The notes under the pieces were generated by a model. That model was not told where the DNA came from. It was given only the letters and a program-made list of their open reading frames with translations, and ran no database searches. A stretch of 64,000 bases of DNA from Escherichia coli (GTDB lineage Bacteria; Pseudomonadota; Gammaproteobacteria; Enterobacterales; Enterobacteriaceae). The stretch is from assembly GCF_024223415.1 (NCBI RefSeq), contig NZ_CP100500.1; one strand, written 5' to 3'. Position 1 is the stretch's first letter. Every line of letters starts with the position of its first letter. Position numbers and translations under genes: made by a program. Below, piece by piece: positions 4,491-14,185 of the stretch.

Positions 4491-4704
4491 CGCGCACCTC
4501 GTGGCTGATTATGGACGGCGTTATTGGCAAAGTGGAACAAGACTCACTCCCGGGTCAGCAAACTCGAAAAATTGACGCTGCCATTATTTGTGCTTTCGTT
4601 TTTTTCTATCCGCCAATAAACCCGTTTTTTTGTTGCTATTTAGCGCCTTTGTCTTATTGACTTACTGGTAGGCTTTGCTACCAGAAATTATCCAGGAGAC
4701 GAAA
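4491..4704. promoter_or_regulatory. Divergent fliE / fliFGHIJK control region (class 2, FlhD4C2-dependent promoters expected)
   Basis: Intergenic between divergent fliF and fliE; promoter motifs not individually resolved. Confidence 0.5.
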
Positions 4705-5019
4705 ATGTCAGCGATACAGGGGATTGAAGGGGTTATCAGCCAGTTACAGGCTACGGCGATGAGTGCGCGTGCACAGGATTCACTGCCGCAACCGACCATT
4801 AGTTTTGCCGGGCAGCTGCACGCCGCGCTCGATCGCATTAGCGATACACAAACAGCTGCCCGCACGCAGGCAGAAAAATTCACCCTCGGTGAACCCGGCG
4901 TGGCGTTAAACGATGTGATGACCGATATGCAAAAAGCCTCAGTTTCTATGCAAATGGGGATTCAGGTGCGTAATAAGCTGGTGGCCGCGTATCAGGAAGT
5001 GATGTCCATGCAGGTGTAG
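4705..5019 (+). CDS. fliE: Flagellar hook-basal body protein FliE (104 aa)
   Basis: ORF track 4675..5019; internal ATG gives [24 protein letters not shown]. Confidence 0.9.
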
Positions 5020-5352
5020 GTTTTGTAACCTGTTGTTAATTACTTCCAATCTCACCGCTTGGGGCATGGATGGGGCAAACTCACTCAATTTCTGGTTTAA
5101 AATGGATACCTGATCCTGAAAGTTTTCTGCCATCCACGATCCGTAAACGCGATAACATGTTTTGTCTTCGCTTTGCTCATAGGAAGAGTGAACTCTTTTG
5201 TTAGCCTGGGGTTCCTTCTGATCATTATTGTTCCTGCCTTTATCTCTTGCCACGCCAGAGCCCCCTGGATACACATACACCAGGATGAAAACGGTGAGTT
5301 GTGTTCAAACTGTAGTACAATTCTCTCCAGTATGAACAGGAAAGAATATGCT

Positions 5353-5685
5353 ATGAACCCTTATATTTATCTTGGTGGCGCAATACTTGCAGAGGTCATT
5401 GGTACAACCTTAATGAAGTTTTCAGAGGGGTTTACACGGTTATGGCCCTCTGTTGGCACAATTATTTGCTATTGTGCATCATTTTGGTTATTAGCTCAGA
5501 CACTGGCTTATATACCTACAGGGATTGCTTATGCTATCTGGTCAGGAGTCGGTATCGTTCTGATTAGTTTGCTTTCCTGGGGATTTTTTGGCCAACGACT
5601 GGACTTGCCAGCCATCATAGGCATGATGTTGATTTGTGCCGGTGTGTTAGTCATTAACTTGTTGTCACGAAGCGCACCGCATTAA
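5353..5685 (+). CDS. emrE: SMR-family multidrug efflux transporter, EmrE-like (110 aa)
   Basis: MNPYIYLGGAILAEVIGTTLMKFSEGFTRLWPSVGT... near-identical to recalled K-12 EmrE (2 substitutions near C-terminus); start taken from ORF track frame. Confidence 0.85.
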   Translation: MNPYIYLGGAILAEVIGTTLMKFSEGFTRLWPSVGTIICYCASFWLLAQTLAYIPTGIAYAIWSGVGIVLISLLSWGFFGQRLDLPAIIGMMLICAGVLVINLLSRSAPH

Positions 5686-5853
5686 AAAATAATCATCCTT
5701 GAGATAACAGGAATCTGATTTGTGCATATTATGGCTAATGTTCGGGGCAACTTTATAATTATGATTGCATTTGCGCGATCATTGCGCCTTTTTGCATAAT
5801 GAGATCAATGCACATCAAATAAAATAACGATAGGTCACAACAAAGAGGTTTTT

Positions 5854-6405
5854 ATGAAAAAACTTATCGTTTCAAGTGTATTGGCATTCATAACATTTTC
5901 TGCGCAGGCCGCAGCATTTCAGGTCACTAGTAATGAAATAAAAACAGGAGAGCAACTTACAACGTCTCATGTATTTTCTGGATTTGGGTGTGAGGGGGGT
6001 AATACATCGCCCTCATTAACCTGGTCTGGTGCTCCAGAAGGCACCAAAAGCTTTGCCGTAACTGTGTATGATCCAGATGCGCCTACAGGCAGCGGATGGT
6101 GGCACTGGACTGTTGCTAATATTCCAGCAACGGTAACATATTTGCCCGCTGATGCAGGAAGACGTGATGGTACAAAACTTCCGACTGGTGCTGTCCAAGG
6201 CCGAAATGATTTTGGTTATGCGGGATTTGGTGGAGCATGTCCTCCCAAAGGAGATAAACCCCATCATTACCAGTTTAAAATATGGGCTCTAAAAACTGAT
6301 AAGATTCCTGTGGATTCTAATTCCAGCGGAGCGTTAGTTGGTTATATGCTTAATGCCAATAAAATTGCAACCGCTGAGATAATACCCGTTTATGAGGTAA
6401 AGTAG
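5854..6405 (+). CDS. ybcL: Periplasmic PEBP/YbhB-YbcL family protein with signal peptide (183 aa)
   Basis: ORF track; N-terminal signal peptide MKKLIVSSVLAFITFSAQA; PEBP-type motifs (DPDAP, GxHHY). Confidence 0.75.
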   Translation: MKKLIVSSVLAFITFSAQAAAFQVTSNEIKTGEQLTTSHVFSGFGCEGGNTSPSLTWSGAPEGTKSFAVTVYDPDAPTGSGWWHWTVANIPATVTYLPADAGRRDGTKLPTGAVQGRNDFGYAGFGGACPPKGDKPHHYQFKIWALKTDKIPVDSNSSGALVGYMLNANKIATAEIIPVYEVK

Positions 6406-6414
6406 GATAAGAGT

Positions 6415-7212
6415 ATGCTGGCAAAAGATAGGACTAACCTAAAGATTGAAGAAATACGGATGCATAAACATCATGAGATTCACAGGGTTAAGCCTCTTAT
6501 GCCAGCTTTATGTCGTATCCGTCAGGGAAAAAAAATTATCAATTGGGAGACGCATAGTCTAACTGTTGATAATAATCAGATAATATTATTTCCCTGTGGA
6601 TATGAATTTTATATTGCGAATTACCCAGAAGCAGGTCTTTATCTTGCAGAAATGCTTTATTATCCCATTGATCTAATTGAAAAGTTCCAAAATCTTTATG
6701 CGATAACCGATCAAATTCGTAACACGACAGGTTTCTGCTTACCTCAGAATCCCGAGTTAATATATTGTTGGGAGCAACTAAAAACATCTATTTCCCGAGG
6801 CTTCTCAACGCAAATTCAGGAACACTTAGCAATGGGCGTTCTACTTTCATTAGGAGCACATCATGTTAATTGTTTACTTTTATCAGATAGTAAACAATCA
6901 TTAATAAGTCGTTGTTATAACCTAATGCTATCCGAACCTGGAACAAAATGGACAGCAAACAAGGTAGCGAGATATCTCTACATTTCTGTTTCCACATTGC
7001 ATCGCCGTCTGGCAAGCGAGGGAGTAAGTTTTCAAAGTATATTGGACGACGTGAGGTTAAATAATGCGTTGTCTGCTATACAAACGACAGTAAAACCCAT
7101 CAGCGAGATTGCCAGGGAAAATGGTTACAAGTGTCCTTCTCGTTTTACTGAAAGGTTCCATAATCGTTTTAAGATAACACCAAGAGAGCTAAGAAAAGCG
7201 TCCAGAGAGTAA
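6415..7212 (+). CDS. ybcM: AraC/XylS-family transcriptional regulator (265 aa), YbcM-like
   Basis: ORF track; C-terminal AraC-type HTH region ([27 protein letters not shown]...[19 protein letters not shown]). Confidence 0.7.
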
Positions 7213-7503
7213 AAGTATTTTATGAAGGAGCAACAGCATAGATTTTTATTTTGGAAAATAAATACGGCATACTCAACCTATTGGAGCCTGAACAATCCGG
7301 TGACTTCTGCGCTAATCGGGGACGTTTATAAGCACATATAATTGATACTATCTTCCTCCATCACAATTTCAGAAATGCACGTGTGATTTTTTTGCATCCG
7401 GCGTTTGGACTATGTGGAGTTCAAGAGTGGGAAAGTTACAAGAGGTTGAGGGGATAATTAAAGGGATGCTTATGACATTAGATATCCGGATAGGTACGGA
7501 TAT

Positions 7504-7543
7504 CGTTGTTATTAAATCTAGTTCGTTGTTATTAAATCTAGTT
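7504..7543. repeat. Perfect tandem direct repeat, 2 x 20 bp (cgttgttattaaatctagtt)
   Basis: Read directly in sequence within the AT-rich non-coding stretch. Confidence 0.85.
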
Positions 7544-8175
7544 TATACGTTAAGATGCAGCTACAGCAGAAATTGCCACTGTTAATTTTTTCATCGTGAG
7601 CCTTTTATTTGAACTATTATTTAAAAATGATGTCACTGCACTACAAATATTCATCCAATCAATGAGATTATTTCAAGATGTAAGTTTTAGTTTCTCATTT
7701 AAATTGTGAAGTAGATCCCTATCTTTATCTGAACTGTTTCTATTGCACACAATGCATGACTATTTTGTGAACGAATATAAATTTGGTAGTTAAATTATAT
7801 TAAAGGTTGTTATTTATGATTGACTCATAATTTATTTATTTAATTTAAATAGCCTAGAAATAACCATGGAAATTATTTGCATGATGTTTGTTTAGATTTA
7901 TTAATGTAATTGAGGTGGTTTTATTTAATACGCAATATAGCGCCGCTTGATATTAGTTCTATTTTTTTTGCGTAAGATAGATGAGACAAACTGAGACGCA
8001 TAATGGTTTGCAAGGCTCTAATACTTTGATGTTGAGGATGTGATGGGGCATGTACGGGGCATAGTACAATGATGTCCATGCTGGTGTAGATAATCTCCAG
8101 GCTTATCCGGTGCGCCGTAAAACCCCGTCCTTCAGGGCAGGGATATAAGGCGTGGTTTTCCACCTGACCAGGTGT

Positions 8176-8595
8176 TTGCTGTTGTTCAATGTATTGGCGG
8201 ATGACGGATATTGGCGCACCTCCGCAGCTACTGGCAAAATAGCCAGGACTCCACAAAACGCCTTTGTAGTAATACCTGACTGCAATATCTGGTCGATCTC
8301 GTCGCAGTCACCTACCCGATACGCCTTTGAGGCTGTTTACCAGACTGGATATCGCCAGTTTGGGAGGATAGTTAATTAACAAATGGACGTGATCTGGTTC
8401 GCCATCCATTTCAACCAGTTCAGCTTCAAAATCAGCACATACATTTGAAAAGTAAGTGCGTAGTTTTTCTGTCGCGTCATGGTCAAAAATCTGACGTCGG
8501 TATCTGGTGACAAAGACCAGGTGAACATGCATCAGGAAAACACAATGCCTTCCACGCCGGATATCGGTTTCTTTTTTCACAGACCAAAGTATCAT
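8176..8595 (-). pseudogene. tnpA: IS200/IS605 Y1 transposase TnpA, disrupted (split over two frames)
   Basis: ORF 8308..8595 carries the HVHLL HuH motif; conserved WSPGYFASSCGGAPISVIRQYIEQQ is in another frame (ORF 7921..8256) and reads through without a nearby stop. Confidence 0.7.
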
Positions 8596-8602
8596 TTGGC
8601 CT

Positions 8603-9811
8603 GTGAAACGACTACAAGCATTTAAATTCCAGTTAAGACCCGGTGGTCAACAGGAGCGTGAAATGAGGCGCTTCGCAGGCGCATGTCGTTTCGTTTTCAA
8701 TCGTGCTCTGGCACGTCAGAATGAGAATCATGAGGTCGGTAATAAATACATCCCTTACGGGAAAATGGCTTCCTGGCTGGTTGAGTGGAAAAATGCCACT
8801 GAAACGCAATGGCTTAAAGATGCCCCGTCACAGCCATTGCAACAGTCACTGAAAGACCTTGAGCGGGCTTACAAAAACTTCTTCCAGAATCGGGCTGCTT
8901 TTCCCCGATTCAAAAAGCGGGGACAGAATGATGTATTCCGCTACCCGCAGGGCGTTAAGCTCGATCAGGAAAACAGCCGTATTTTTCTGCCGAAACTGGG
9001 CTGGATGCGCTACCGGAACAGCCGTCAGGTCACGGGTGTTGTGAAAAATGTCACTGTCAGCCAGTCCTGCGGTAAGTGGTACATCAGTATTCAGACAGAA
9101 AGTGAAGTATCAACTCCGGTTCACCCTTCAGCATCAATGGTCGGGCTGGATGCTGGCGTGGCTAAACTCGCCACGCTGTCAGATGGCACAGTCTTTGAGC
9201 CTGTAAACAGTTTTCAGAAAAACCAGAAGAAGCTGGCGAGACTTCAGCGACAGTTAAGCCGCAAGGTCAAATTCAGCAACAACTGGCAGAAGCAGAAACG
9301 CAAAATACAGCGACTGCATTCCTGTATCGCAAATATCCGCAGGGACTACCTTCACAAAGTCACAACGACCGTCAGCAAAAACCACGCAATGATAGTCATT
9401 GAGGATTTGAAGGTCAGCAACATGTCAAAGTCAGCAGCGGGTACGGTCAGCCAGCCGGGGCGCAATGTCCGGGCAAAATCAGGTTTAAACCGTTCGATAC
9501 TGGATCAGGGCTGGTATGAAATGCGCCGCCAGCTTGAGTACAAGCAGCTCTGGCGTGGCGGTCAGGTGCTTGCTGTTCCGCCAGCGTACACAAGCCAGCG
9601 TTGCGCGTGCTGTGGTCATACAGAGAAAGAAAACCGCCTGTCACAAAGTAAATTCAGATGCCAGGTATGTGGATATACAGCGAACGCCGATGTAAATGGC
9701 GCTCGTAACATTTTAGCGGCGGGGCACGCCGTTCTTGCCTGTGGAGAGATGGTGCAGTCAGGCCGCCCGTTGAAGCAGGAACCCACCGAAATGATTCAGG
9801 CGACAGCCTGA
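8603..9811 (+). CDS. tnpB: TnpB (IS605 OrfB family) RuvC-like RNA-guided endonuclease (402 aa), apparently intact
   Basis: ORF track; N-terminal [13 protein letters not shown]; Ruv[19 protein letters not shown], RuvC-II IEDLKV, zinc finger CACCGH...CQVCG, Ruv[13 protein letters not shown]. Confidence 0.9.
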
Positions 9812-9850
9812 ACGTAGCAGGGATCCTCGTCCTTCAGGGCGTGGAGGATG

Positions 9851-10522
9851 TCAACAAACAGGTTGAATTAACTCCGCGCCCTGGTTTTTGACATTACCTA
9901 CCGCGCGCGATACCGGGTGCCAGGTGAACTGGTTTGCTGGCACACAGCCGTTGGTAGCAATTTCTGATGCTTCTTTACCGCCAATCTCTTGCCGCATCCA
10001 TTCCTGTGCAGCTTCTGGCGACAGAACCAGCGGGCGGCGGTCATGAATATCTACCAGACCCTGGTCTGCTGCTGCAGTGACAATTAAAAATCCTTCGGCT
10101 TCGTCACCGCGCTCAAACGGTGTGCTACCTATCGCGGCCATAAAAACAGGTTGTCCATCAGCGCGATAGATAAAATAAGGCTGTTTTTTGTCGCCTTCTT
10201 TTTTCCACTCAAACCAGCCATCGGCAAAACAGATTGCCCGACCATGTTGCCAGAGCGGTTTAAACATACGACTGGTGGCCGCAGTTTCTACGCGGGCGTT
10301 AATCAGCGGCGGTTTATCCCACCATCCGGGAGCATATCCCCAGAAAACCGGATCCAGATGAAGGTGTTCATCACGTTCACTGAGCAGAAGAACTTTGGTT
10401 CCCGGCGCGACGTTGTATCTGCCAATGGGTTCGGGATCGTAGGGAATATCGCGTTCAATATCTTCCGCGAGAAGCGCAAGGTAATCTTCACGCGTTTGGG
10501 ATTGGGCAAAGCGTCCACACAT
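9851..10522 (-). CDS. yedK: SOS-response-associated peptidase (SRAP) YedK, abasic-site processing protein
   Basis: ORF track; MCGRFAQSQTREDYLALL with the catalytic Cys2 start typical of SRAP proteins. Confidence 0.9.
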   Translation of the reverse strand: MCGRFAQSQTREDYLALLAEDIERDIPYDPEPIGRYNVAPGTKVLLLSERDEHLHLDPVFWGYAPGWWDKPPLINARVETAATSRMFKPLWQHGRAICFADGWFEWKKEGDKKQPYFIYRADGQPVFMAAIGSTPFERGDEAEGFLIVTAAADQGLVDIHDRRPLVLSPEAAQEWMRQEIGGKEASEIATNGCVPANQFTWHPVSRAVGNVKNQGAELIQPVC

Positions 10523-10628
10523 AGAAACCTCCTGAGATCATACTGAAAAGAATAGGAGAGGGGGCGGGTAAAATCTATGTGTCAGAGGCAACGATGTTCC
10601 CGCTGTGGGCCACAGCGGGAATGAGGGA

Positions 10629-12247: not shown

Positions 12248-12664
12248 ATGATGAAAAAACTCGCAATTGCAGGCGCGCTCATGTTGCTGGCGGGCTGTGC
12301 CGAAGTCGAAAACTATAACAATGTCGTGAAAACCCCCGCGCCGGACTGGCTGGCGGGCTACTGGCAGACCAAAGGGCCGCAACGTGCGCTGGTCAGTCCG
12401 GAAGCGATAGGCAGCCTGATTGTCACTAAAGAGGGCGATACCCTGGATTGCCGTCAGTGGCAGCGGGTGATTGCCGTGCCGGGCAAGTTGACATTGATGT
12501 CTGATGATCTCACTAACGTTACCGTAAAACGTGAGCTGTACGAGGTTGAGCGTGACGGTAACACCATTGAGTACGATGGTATGACGATGGAGCGTGTGGA
12601 TCGCCCGACGGCAGAGTGTGCCGCCGCGCTGGATAAAGCGCCGTTACCGACGCCACTGCCGTAA
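12248..12664 (+). CDS. yedD: Lipoprotein YedD
   Basis: ORF track; lipobox LLAGC in signal peptide. Confidence 0.85.
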   Translation: MMKKLAIAGALMLLAGCAEVENYNNVVKTPAPDWLAGYWQTKGPQRALVSPEAIGSLIVTKEGDTLDCRQWQRVIAVPGKLTLMSDDLTNVTVKRELYEVERDGNTIEYDGMTMERVDRPTAECAAALDKAPLPTPLP

Positions 12665-12671
12665 TGAAATC

Positions 12672-12691
12672 TCCCCGGCTTGCCGCCGGGG
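12672..12691. terminator. Bidirectional hairpin between convergent yedD and amyA
   Basis: tccccggc-ttgc-gccgggga inverted repeat. Confidence 0.55.
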
Positions 12692-12697
12692 ATGAAT

Positions 12698-14185
12698 TTA
12701 AATCACCTCTTCGATAACCCACACGCTGACGCTGCCGCCGTTGCAAAAGAAGGTCGCTTCGCCGTTTTCGTCGGTCACTACGCTCTCTTGCCGATTCCCC
12801 AGAAAATCACGCCAGGTTTTATTGCCGTAATTCTCTCCCAGATGAATGGTTTTTTCGCCATCATCCCCGTTCGACATGACCACCACGCAGCCGGGATATT
12901 CGTCAGTGCCACTGCGACTAAAGGCAATGCAGTTCGGATGGTCGAAAAATAACGTCTGTACACCGTGGGCGAAACGCTGACGGGCGAGAATTAACTCATC
13001 AAGCTGTTCGATTATTGGCATATCTATCGGATAGGTTTGCCCGTCACCACCGACATCTTCGTAATGCGCACCGTAGAGGTCCGGATAGAATACCGAAGGA
13101 ACGCCATTTTCCCGCAACAAAATTAAGGTATACGCCAGCGGTTTAAACCACGGTTCGACCGGCGCTTCGAGGGCTTGCAACGGTTGGGTGTCGTGATTGG
13201 CAACGAGCGTCACGGCGTGGAAAGGATCGGCTTCCACTAATGTACCCGTGAAAATCTGCGTCATGTCGTAGTCGCGCCCCATGCGCGATGCTTCATGGAA
13301 TTTCATCTGCAGCGGCGCATCGAACAGCATGGTTTTGCCTTCCACCTGATCAATATACGTTTGCAGTTTATCGACTTCATGCGACCAGTACTCCGCCACA
13401 ATAAACAGCGGCTTTGGCGCAACTTCCTGTACGTGTTCGATCCACTCTTTATAAAACCACGCCGGAATATGTTTGACCGCATCAAGACGAAAACCGTCGC
13501 ATTGTGTTTGTTCCATCACCCAGCGCGCCCAGTATTTAATCTCTTCCGTCACGGCATGATTGCGGAAATCGATATTCTCACCCATCAGATAATCGAAATT
13601 ACCGAGTTCATCATCAACCTGATCGTTCCAGCCTTCACCGGTGTAGTCGTTAACAATTTTAAAAATGCCATCTTCATCAGGGTTTTCGATATGGTCGATA
13701 CCGCTAAAACATTTGAAATCCCAGATAAACTGCGAGTATTGCCCGGCACGGGCGGGGAAGGTGTAACGCGTCCAGCCTTCGCACTCTATGATTTCTTCGT
13801 CAATTTGCGTACGGTCATCAGCATTTACACGCTGCACGCGAATAGCTTCTTTTTCATCCGCGCCCATTTTGTGGTTGACTACCACGTCCAACAGCACCGC
13901 AATGTCATTACGTTTCAGAGCGTCAATGGCGGCCAGCAGTTGTGCTTTATCGCCATATTTAGTAGGGATGCTGCCTTTCTGATCAAACTCGCCTAAATCA
14001 AATAAATCATAGGAGTCGTAGCCGACCGAATACCCGCCCGATGCGCCTTTATAGGCGGGCGGCAACCAGACCATATTGATACCAATATCATTAAAACCGT
14101 CGGCGCGCTCGGCCAGTTCAGGCCAGAGCTTACCGCCTTCCGGGTAATACCAGTGAAAACATTGTAACAGCGTGGGATTACGCAT
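12698..14185 (-). CDS. amyA: Cytoplasmic alpha-amylase (495 aa)
   Basis: ORF track; [23 protein letters not shown]13 motifs. Confidence 0.95.

Follow-up and report, generated by a model that had tools for sequence, protein, structure and literature searches.

Among described elements, those closest in content to the DNA analyzed here are the cryptic lambdoid prophage DLP12 of Escherichia coli K-12, which resides at argU and carries emrE, ybcL and ybcM with ylcJ and ybcK between emrE and ybcL, and the functional phage PhiR34_1 (PV340559). Genes of both run in the order int (minus strand), ren, emrE, ybcL, ybcM, nin, Q and porin (minus strand), other genes intervening between int and ren. The closest relatives by integrase family and by an attP/attB core at the fliE end are phage IdasGreatGrand (PP925829), which is a complete phage, and a prophage at fliE of UTAK-1, in which the integrase is full-length and the early and lysis modules are full. 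The part of the UTAK-1 prophage inspected, which stopped short of the right end, carries at fliE genes for int, xis, immunity, replication, nin, Q, lysis and terminase, and neither emrE nor ybcLM was seen in the inspected part of either element. By chromosomal site the closest counterpart is intG of K-12 ('cryptic prophage PR-G'), which lies with yedN and yedL between fliE and yedK; an earlier note on this DNA had given correctly both this arrangement and the placement of emrE, ybcL and ybcM in DLP12.

In the window (i.e., the whole stretch of 64,000 nucleotides that was analyzed), the interval from 5020 to 9854 contains emrE, ybcL and ybcM, followed by a non-coding, AT-rich tract of approximately 900 bp and an IS200/IS605 element 1747 bp long, all of which the earlier note had located accurately. 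The interval is bounded by fliE (4705–5019, plus strand; TIGR00205, 89 bits, and RefSeq annotation of a 99.9%-identical locus) and by yedK (9851–10522, minus strand), the gene for an SRAP/abasic-site protein (NF007413, 492.5 bits). A comparison of base composition suggested in that note revealed a contrast with the flanks, GC content being 36–45% in the cassette and 50–59% on either side. This DNA is very probably a collapsed lambda-like prophage, reduced to approximately 3 kb, that integrated at the end of fliE and of which only emrE, ybcL and ybcM were kept as whole cargo genes. The element is of an already known kind, to which the remnant at fliE adds one more example.

The ends of the former prophage were indicated by a 20-bp direct repeat enclosing the phage-derived DNA, in keeping with the suggestion that att-like repeats be sought at the borders. 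The attL core (TGATGTCCATGCAGGTGTAG, 5000–5019) is formed by the last 20 nt of fliE, and the attR core (TGATGTCCATGCTGGTGTAG, 8070–8089), i.e., the displaced original fliE end, differs from it by one mismatch (19/20 identical) and is separated from yedK by 18 bp. A 30-mer across the core was never encountered in 100 shuffles. The second copy was found in all cassette-type loci that still retain the region, and this non-coding copy bears a different single mutation in window-type and in Nissle-type genomes. The attL core is identical to the attP core of IdasGreatGrand and identity runs on through 5035, the attP of this phage holding the same 36 nt (i.e., the fliE end plus downstream sequence).

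Adjoining attL is the integrase-side prophage arm (5020–5155, minus strand), which includes a remnant of the C-terminal approximately 41 aa of a tyrosine integrase, equivalent to intG and with its stop codon removed by an 11-nt deletion. This remnant was 83% identical to the IdasGreatGrand integrase over 41 aa (tblastn) and 88.6% over 167 nt (blastn). An internal fragment of the same gene followed (5151–5260, minus strand; 75% over 116 nt to IdasGreatGrand int, 2543–2658 of L091, E = 2.5e-18). Both fragments are on the minus strand and directed towards attL, the arrangement of an integrated prophage. Full-length integrase genes abutting fliE were noted in 6 genomes, and an integrase remnant of the same family adjoins fliE in Franconibacter.

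Four blocks in lambdoid order, collinear with PhiR34_1 as well as with DLP12, were observed directly, such that the window reads ren 3' end, emrE, ybcL, ybcM, Q 3' end, porin start and porin upstream region, with ylcJ-ybcK missing before ybcL and nin missing after ybcM. Homology to DLP12 and PhiR34_1 begins in the ren 3' end and emrE upstream region (5277–5352, plus strand), and identity was 92.5% between 5277–5687 and positions 1502–1912 of the PhiR34_1 sequence (L010, in which ren ends at 1510). The ybcLM block (5699–7429 against L010 4001–5731, 89%) extends beyond ybcM through phage DNA (7213–7428, plus strand) up to the position at which ybcN starts in intact phages. There follows the 3' end of a quuD-like antiterminator Q gene (7429–7523, plus strand; 82.5% over 97 nt to the 3' end of DLP12 quuD and to PhiR34_1 Q, E = 5e-22), the entire nin region and most of Q being deleted. 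Of a phage porin gene (nmpC/lc/ompD-like), the opening 13 codons (MKKLTVAISAVAA) were read from the sequence at 7554–7594 on the minus strand and by alignment to L004 from 9600 onward. The remainder of this gene is deleted in the window and intact at the same position in Nissle-type genomes (annotated in Nissle); a repeat search and alignment with Nissle revealed an exact 20-bp tandem duplication at the deletion junction (7503–7542). The AT-rich upstream region of the deleted gene (7595–7931), which accounts for most of the AT-rich DNA previously put at '700 bp', was 81.6% identical to L010 8833–9211 and 98.2–98.4% identical to Nissle, and many lambdoid phages match it beside their porin gene. 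It forms part of a non-coding stretch (7213–8107) in which GC content falls to 27%. The segment from 7932 to 8069, conserved with Nissle, is presumed from its position to be the prophage right arm adjoining attR, against which counts the failure of these 138 bp to match anything in the sequenced-phage collection. Between attR and yedK lies the ancestral spacer from the fliE stop to the yedK stop (8090–8107), the final two bases of which belong to the yedK stop codon.

These findings bear on the earlier proposal of a general recombination hotspot in the fliE flank, by which a three-gene cargo was captured from a DLP12-type prophage elsewhere in the genome. Several unrelated contents do occupy the same interval in different strains and the cassette is homologous to DLP12 cargo. 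On the other hand, phage homology extends beyond the three genes, in phage order, to the 3' ends of ren and Q and to the porin start with its upstream region; the island has fragments of integrase, as well as att cores, at its edges; the cassette genes differ from those of DLP12 at synonymous sites (dS 0.24–0.38), hence were not copied from a resident DLP12; and most cassette-bearing genomes hold a single copy (median of 1 place per genome). Capture of this kind is therefore highly improbable. The cargo is considered instead to have come in as part of an entire lambdoid prophage, which inserted by site-specific integration at the 3' end of fliE and then decayed in place; evidence for this is given by both att cores, the fragments of integrase, the remains of Q and porin and the collinearity with PhiR34_1.

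Although cassette and DLP12/PhiR34_1 sequences were 89–92% identical at the nucleotide level, the window remnant differs from DLP12 in its site (fliE 3' end as opposed to argU) and in being far more decayed (about 3 kb as opposed to 21 kb), and lacks the ylcJ-ybcK, nin, lysis and structural genes of DLP12 and PhiR34_1. DLP12 itself (argU, intD) was ruled out as the identity of the element by the fliE location and by the dS values, which point instead to separate integration of a related phage. Neither ORFs nor homology for repressor, replication, lysis or virion genes were found in 5020–8107, and the remnant is unable to excise or to form particles. Since it has no intact integrase and no xis, it is immobile and now inherited vertically with the flagellar region.

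Of 5426 complete E. coli genomes, 2620 had the contiguous cassette and 1073 the exact arrangement of the window. The cassette was at fliE in every genome inspected, a location that was checked by annotation in a handful of the 2620 and is implied for the others by the query, the first 120 bp of which are specific to this site. Values of dS between the window and Nissle were comparable for the cassette (emrE 0.079, ybcL 0.065, ybcM 0.024) and for flanking core genes (fliF 0.069, fliG 0.052, yedE 0.081). Thus, of the earlier description of a strain-specific accessory island, the accessory nature holds, given the several alternative contents of the interval, while strain specificity does not; presence at fliE in approximately half of complete genomes indicates an ordinary old prophage remnant as opposed to a strain-specific capture.

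Co-divergence of the cassette with its core flanks, together with the greater frequency of the fliE-linked emrE-ybcL-ybcM form than of the prophage form, might be taken to mean that these genes were ancestrally chromosomal at fliE and that lambdoid phages (DLP12, PhiR34_1) acquired them there. We regard this as very unlikely, since the duplicate att core on the yedK side and the integrase fragments on the fliE side place the cassette inside an integrated element, phage sequences (ren 3' end, Q 3' end and porin) are contiguous with it, and its GC content of 36–45% contrasts with more than 50% in the flanks. Moreover, the place of these genes in phages, between ren and nin, is one typical of morons, and many prophages carry emrE alone.

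The decayed prophage may have had a less than purely vertical history, i.e., homologous recombination in its flagellar and yed flanks may recently have carried the remnant from one E. coli lineage to another. The integrase remnant of the window shares its 11-nt deletion with K-12 despite the differing content of the two loci, and remnants in Nissle, E14 and PK8261, whatever their content, are without it; the integrase segment was also the most diverged part of the comparison with Nissle (92.7%). Opposed to this is the equality of cassette and flank dS between the window and Nissle, as vertical descent predicts, and we judge recent spread unlikely, albeit with an appreciable chance of being correct. 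Equal dS of cassette and flanks would also follow from exchange of whole segments that include the flanks.

Contents of the fliE-yedK interval in E. coli comprised a K-12 yedL/yedN type, an O157 espR4/espR3 type, a 392-bp minimal type and three cassette types. Like the window, K-12 has the C-terminal integrase remnant (the 5020–5155 segment, common to the window and intG) abutting fliE, with 97.5–98.4% identity up to 5156, and the 18-nt spacer beside yedK, which also abuts yedK in Nissle and in the minimal type. The K-12 cargo differs in having neither emrE nor ybcLM but a GNAT acetyltransferase and yedN, an espR3-like pseudogene for an LRR type III effector, and the Ser codon inside its fliE core is AGC, not TCC. 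K-12-type genomes, and minimal-type genomes likewise, have the integrase remnant and the spacer but no attR core, which counts against the prophage model favored here. Tentatively, and with somewhat less than an even chance of being right, the fliE 3' end may serve one integrase family as a conserved attachment site throughout Enterobacteriaceae, where serial integration and decay would have given rise to alternative cargo alleles, now immobilised, that hold emrE/ybcLM (porin present or absent), LRR type III effectors plus GNAT, or almost nothing. These alleles would now segregate in E. coli and be swappable by homologous recombination in the flagellar flanks, with fliE-linked emrE and ybcL domesticated and under purifying selection. 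If so, the EmrE and YbcL of the species would come mainly from the fliE locus, as opposed to the K-12 DLP12 copy, and the same would presumably apply to the UPEC YbcL allele.

The history that would account for the locus begins with integration of a DLP12-like lambdoid phage, by means of its tyrosine integrase, into the 20-bp core at the fliE 3' end. This would have occurred in an early E. coli ancestor, a date drawn solely from the comparison of the window with B2, when fliE and yedK were convergent and 16 bp apart. Successive deletions, in an order that we infer, would then have removed most of int, xis, the immunity and replication genes, ylcJ-ybcK, nin, most of Q and all lysis and structural genes, with additional loss of the porin gene in the window lineage. 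Three lysogenic-conversion genes (i.e., emrE and ybcL-ybcM) would have been left, and the IS200/IS605 element would later have inserted into the yedK stop codon.

The three proteins proved to be true homologues of EmrE, YbcL and YbcM and of phage origin, as the earlier note had held. The emrE gene (5353–5685, plus strand) encodes a predicted SMR proton/cation antiporter of 110 aa in which Glu14 is present (MNPYIYLGGAILAE); it scored 240.5 bits against NF042984 of NCBIfam (cut-off 226), was 98.2% identical to K-12 EmrE and identical to the proteins of Nissle and E14, and had a dN/dS of 0–0.02. By its K-12 counterpart, the protein would use proton coupling to export cationic drugs and osmoprotectants. 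The ybcL gene (5854–6405, plus strand; dN/dS 0.09–0.15) encodes a periplasmic PEBP/Raf-kinase-inhibitor-like protein that scored 400.7 bits against NF007330 (cut-off 277) over residues 1–183 and was 95.1% identical to K-12 YbcL, N-terminus with signal sequence included. A neutrophil-suppressing YbcL variant of UPEC, described by Lau et al. in 2012, reportedly has Thr at mature residue 78 (V78T). The corresponding precursor residue 99, on the assumption of a 21-aa signal peptide, is Ala in the window, Val in K-12 and Thr in Nissle, and the window protein is thus not that variant. The link of YbcL with uropathogenic strains to which the earlier note referred is indeed present in the literature (PMC4810123).

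The ybcM gene (6415–7212, plus strand) begins 9 nt beyond the stop codon of ybcL and encodes an AraC-family regulator with C-terminal AraC-type HTH matches over residues 153–264 and 91.3% identity to K-12 YbcM over 265 aa. It is intact in the window and frameshifted in the closest genome; dN/dS, from small counts, was 0.47 between the window and Nissle, and selection on ybcM may be relaxed. In the excerpted account of K-12 ChIP-exo results (PMC8464067), a YbcM site lies upstream of ybcLM and ucpA and ubiT are named among 12 sites, whereas emrE goes unnamed, which lends no support to the earlier suggestion of YbcM as the likely emrE regulator. By analogy with K-12, ybcL-ybcM would be an autoregulated operon in which a periplasmic PEBP protein is paired with an AraC-type regulator. 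Nor was support found for a joint move of transporter and regulator as had been supposed; emrE and ybcLM are separate cargo modules, because intact phages have ylcJ and ybcK between them and emrE occurs without ybcLM.

The IS200/IS605-family element (8108–9854, plus strand) is inserted inside the yedK stop codon. Its intact tnpB (8603–9811, plus strand) encodes 402 aa that scored 387.8 bits against NF040570 (cut-off 100), and its tnpA (about 8164–8595, minus strand; NF033573, 102 bits, HVHLL motif present) is a pseudogene with an in-frame stop at 8308–8310 (codon 96). The element resembles IS605/IS609-type elements in its divergent tnpA and tnpB and in a shared subterminal end motif, a 21-nt imperfect palindrome at 8123–8143 and 9825–9845. 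As in such elements, neither target duplication nor terminal inverted repeats were found at the insertion, which lies exactly between the bases of the Nissle empty site (TTATC|AAACAGG) with nothing duplicated. It differs from them in the in-frame stop of tnpA, because of which it is probably non-autonomous. Folding energies of the end hairpins were no better than those of shuffles (z about -0.8) and no Rfam RNA family matched. Compared with the ends of the K-12 and Nissle genes, yedK of the window is longer by one Cys codon, its new stop codon being supplied by the IS end.

The gene calls of an earlier note on the interval between fliE and yedK were borne out by ORF listing and family searches. 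Thus, fliE (4705-5019) is followed by emrE (5353-5685; NF042984, 240.5 bits, cut-off 226), ybcL (5854-6405; NF007330, 400.7 bits, cut-off 277), a gene for an AraC-family protein, YbcM (6415-7212), an IS200/IS605 element with an intact tnpB that encodes a 402-aa TnpB (8603-9811; NF040570, 387.8 bits) and, on the minus strand, yedK (9851-10522). Identity to the corresponding K-12 proteins was 98.2% for EmrE, 95.1% for YbcL and 91.3% for YbcM. In the K-12 record, the interval holds intG, yedN and yedL and the order emrE-ylcJ-ybcK-ybcL-ybcM lies in the cryptic lambdoid prophage DLP12; the K-12 layout given in the note was therefore right for both sites. GC content was 36-45% in the emrE-ybcL-ybcM cassette, as compared with 50-59% in the flanks, and 27% at 7601-8000. 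A search of 4500-10600 against Rfam at E <= 0.1 gave no matches, and known RNA families, including IS605-associated motifs, were therefore not detected. Promoter-like sites in a promoter and terminator scan of 5000-8150 numbered 5, versus 10.7 in shuffled sequence, and none was assigned.

What occupies the interval is a DLP12-like lambdoid prophage, now decayed, at an attB site in fliE; the IS element was inserted later. Pairwise comparisons with phage PhiR34_1 and with DLP12 identified four collinear blocks, which were the ren 3' end with emrE (5277-5687, 92.5% identical to phage), a segment that begins upstream of ybcL and reaches the ybcN start (5699-7429, 89%), the Q 3' end (7429-7523, 82.5%, E = 5e-22) and the first codons of the phage porin gene with its upstream region (7554-7931, 81.6%). 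The full order in PhiR34_1 is O-P-ren-emrE-ylcJ-ybcK-ybcL-ybcM-ybcN-ninE-ybcO-rusA-ylcG-Q-porin(-)-S-R-Rz. On the minus strand, 7554-7594 encodes MKKLTVAISAVAA, the start of the porin signal peptide, and the whole porin is still present at the corresponding position in strain Nissle 1917. Thus, the 700 bp of AT-rich DNA described earlier as non-coding is indeed present but is made up of phage remnants, namely the end of Q, the stub of the porin gene with the region upstream of it, and a short, presumed right arm (7932-8069). An exact 20-bp tandem duplication (two copies of TCGTTGTTATTAAATCTAGT) occupies 7503-7542 at the porin-deletion junction and is single copy in Nissle. The collinear remnants, together with integrase fragments and att repeats, mark emrE, ybcL and ybcM as survivors of prophage decay rather than as phage cargo captured as a cassette. 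This corrects a plausible misreading. For E. coli genome biology, nothing here is unexpected. The fliE-linked allele differs from the DLP12 copies in DNA sequence (about 10%), in the absence of ybcK and in its flanks.

Homology between the window and K-12 extends through 5156 and takes in the K-12 intG remnant, the translation of which matches the C-termini of phage integrases. The alignment of window 5155-5000 with the free phage IdasGreatGrand (88.6% identity, 167 nt) extends from the int terminus across the phage attP into the last 20 nt of fliE, and window 5260-5151 aligned with sequence inside that int gene. The check for att-like repeats at the island borders was positive, as a repeat search found a second copy of the 20-nt core TGATGTCCATGCAGGTGTAG (5000-5019) at 8070-8089, differing by one base and lying 18 bp from the yedK stop. 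The second copy in Nissle-type genomes carries a different single mismatch, and a 30-mer spanning the core had 0 occurrences in 100 shuffles. Judged by sequence, these direct repeats are attL and attR. Excision of all DNA between them would leave convergent fliE and yedK genes with stop codons 16 bp apart. A full-length integrase adjoins fliE in six genomes, and in strain UTAK-1 the fliE-adjoining integrase is followed, in the fliE-side part that was read, by xis, immunity, replication, nin, Q, lysis and terminase genes. A 20-bp attB in fliE is thus defined that appears to remain in use by lambdoid phages; a literature search on the fliE att site and on intG/yedN/PR-G found nothing relevant.

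In intervals of the K-12 and minimal types, the integrase remnant is still present, as is the 18-bp spacer beside yedK, but there is no attR core. The Ser codon within the att core in fliE (5005-5007) is TCC in cassette-type genomes and IdasGreatGrand and AGC in K-12-type and minimal-type genomes, a synonymous multi-nucleotide change which suggests that different elements supplied the fliE end. The integrase remnants of the window and K-12 have the same 11-nt deletion, which is absent from Nissle. Together, the codon, attR and deletion patterns suggest separate integrations or recombination among alleles.

The distribution of the island was determined among 5426 complete E. coli genomes. The whole arrangement (query 4700-10600, at least 80% coverage) was present in 1073, with best matches 99.5-99.9% identical. 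A cassette query (5157-7420), which contains 120 bp specific to the fliE site and for which emrE and ybcL must be contiguous, was matched at 80% coverage or more by 2620 genomes, with identity of about 98-99.9% among the matches listed; about 1,065 further genomes had prophage-type copies only. In every example inspected (CFSAN061772, Nissle 1917, E14 and F41), the cassette was at fliE. These counts do not fit the description of the island as strain-specific, since it is widespread, while its description as accessory stands in view of the alternative contents of the site. These include K-12-type yedL/yedN (1176 genomes at 80% coverage or more), the espR4 and espR3 modules of O157 and a minimal interval of 392 bp. 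In O157:H7 BB24-1 (L008 3930-8078), the modules are arranged in tandem as int'-espR4-GNAT' and int'-espR3-GNAT, and the second integrase remnant (L008 5879-5999) is 91.7% identical to window 5036-5155.

Three forms of the cassette were noted at fliE. In the Nissle type, emrE-ybcL-ybcM is followed by a minus-strand porin gene, still intact, and then yedK; in the window type (1073 genomes), the porin is deleted and the IS adjoins yedK; and in the E14 type (junction in 1102 genomes), deletions on either side of the IS have taken away part of yedK at its 3' end, together with the AT-rich DNA. A clean count of the Nissle type was impossible because its junction query also matched Q-porin junctions of DLP12-like prophages; subtraction left about 445 cassette genomes of neither the window nor the E14 type. 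In genomes of the E14 type (L005 8213-9468 in E14), deletions around the same IS also took attR and most of tnpB, and yedK, with its 3' third gone, is a pseudogene. These genomes number about 1100, and human clinical isolates are the source of many of them. In F41 (L006 4248-5140), IS1 lies immediately upstream of ybcL and is followed by yedP, dgcQ and yodC, and the position therefore lacks emrE, the whole fliE-fliR region, rcsA, dsrB and yodD, through deletion or rearrangement mediated by IS1.

The prophage remnant at fliE is old as well as widespread. Between the window and Nissle, which belongs to phylogroup B2, dS was 0.079 for emrE, 0.065 for ybcL and 0.024 for ybcM, as compared with 0.069 for fliF, 0.052 for fliG, 0.074 for fliE and 0.081 for yedE, and segment-wise nucleotide identity was alike within and beyond the cassette. 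Thus, the remnant has co-diverged with its flanks. Values of dS against the DLP12 copies were 0.24-0.38, and the phage lineage of the remnant therefore differs from that of DLP12 and split from it earlier. Ratios of dN/dS (0 for emrE, 0.10-0.15 for ybcL and 0.2-0.5 for ybcM, the last on few substitutions) indicate purifying selection on emrE and ybcL; ybcM is intact in the window and frameshifted in the closest genome. The remnant thus offers an example of moron genes long retained under purifying selection after loss of all phage functions.

By homology and from the literature, EmrE is predicted to be a dimeric SMR proton/cation antiporter, and the essential Glu14 is present in the window protein. 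In the window, 9 nt separate ybcL from ybcM. In passages of a K-12 ChIP-exo study, ybcL and ybcM form an operon with a YbcM site upstream, deletion of ybcM reduces survival after H2O2, and emrE is unnamed among YbcM targets (PMC8464067). In intact phages, ylcJ and ybcK stand between emrE and ybcLM, and in many prophages emrE adjoins ren without ybcLM. The suggestion that a transporter and its likely regulator moved together is therefore unsupported, as far as those passages go. On the same grounds, absence of linkage in phages and of ChIP evidence in those passages, YbcM was rejected as a dedicated regulator of emrE. [quoted passage not shown] Residue 99 of the YbcL precursor (window codon 6148-6150) is Val in K-12, Thr in Nissle and Ala in the window, which therefore carries a third allele. 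This residue is presumably the one (mature 78) reported to decide suppression of neutrophil migration, the deciding change of Lau et al. reportedly being V78T in the mature protein. To our knowledge, functional studies of EmrE, YbcL and YbcM have almost all used the K-12 DLP12 copies, while the fliE-linked allele is the one found in 2620 of the 5426 genomes.

Comparison with Nissle placed the IS200/IS605 element at exactly 8108-9854. The empty site in Nissle is TTATC/AAACAGG (slash at the insertion point), the IS-free junction reads TTATC/AAACAGGTTGAATTAA and there is no duplication in the window. Two diverged lineages have the IS at this one position. The IS splits the yedK stop codon (window 9851-9856 and 8104-8107), so that YedK gains one Cys and takes its stop codon from the IS end, giving 223 aa (…QPVC) as opposed to 222 aa without the IS. 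A repeat search found a 21-nt motif common to both IS ends, where hairpins predicted by folding were no better than those of shuffles (not significant). The tnpA gene has one in-frame stop (8308-8310).

Outside E. coli, a scan of genome contigs with YedK matched no further Escherichia species; its matches were mostly non-syntenic paralogues from other genera, the Franconibacter loci being the only syntenic ones. In Franconibacter pulveris (L083 about 12600-12860), the DNA separating yedK from fliE contains a fragment (…RHTYACWSLTAGANPSFIASQMG…) of an integrase from the same family, and the fliE end may therefore serve for attachment in further genera as well. Of the YedK homologues with 80-88% identity in Citrobacter, Enterobacter, Klebsiella and relatives (L012-L090), most were located away from yedE/yedF and fliE, and several of these genomes carried two copies. 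In these genera, genes of the yedK kind thus appear to be either mobile or paralogous. A 5.2-kb contig labelled "MAG: Lachnospiraceae bacterium" (SFGN01000137.1) carries yedK-porin-ybcM-ybcL-emrE-int', with proteins 85-100% identical to those of E. coli, and is most likely E. coli contamination or mis-binning. Enterobacterial-type YedK was also noted on contigs labelled Chryseobacterium, Streptococcus infantis and Streptomyces (L018, L063 and L079).
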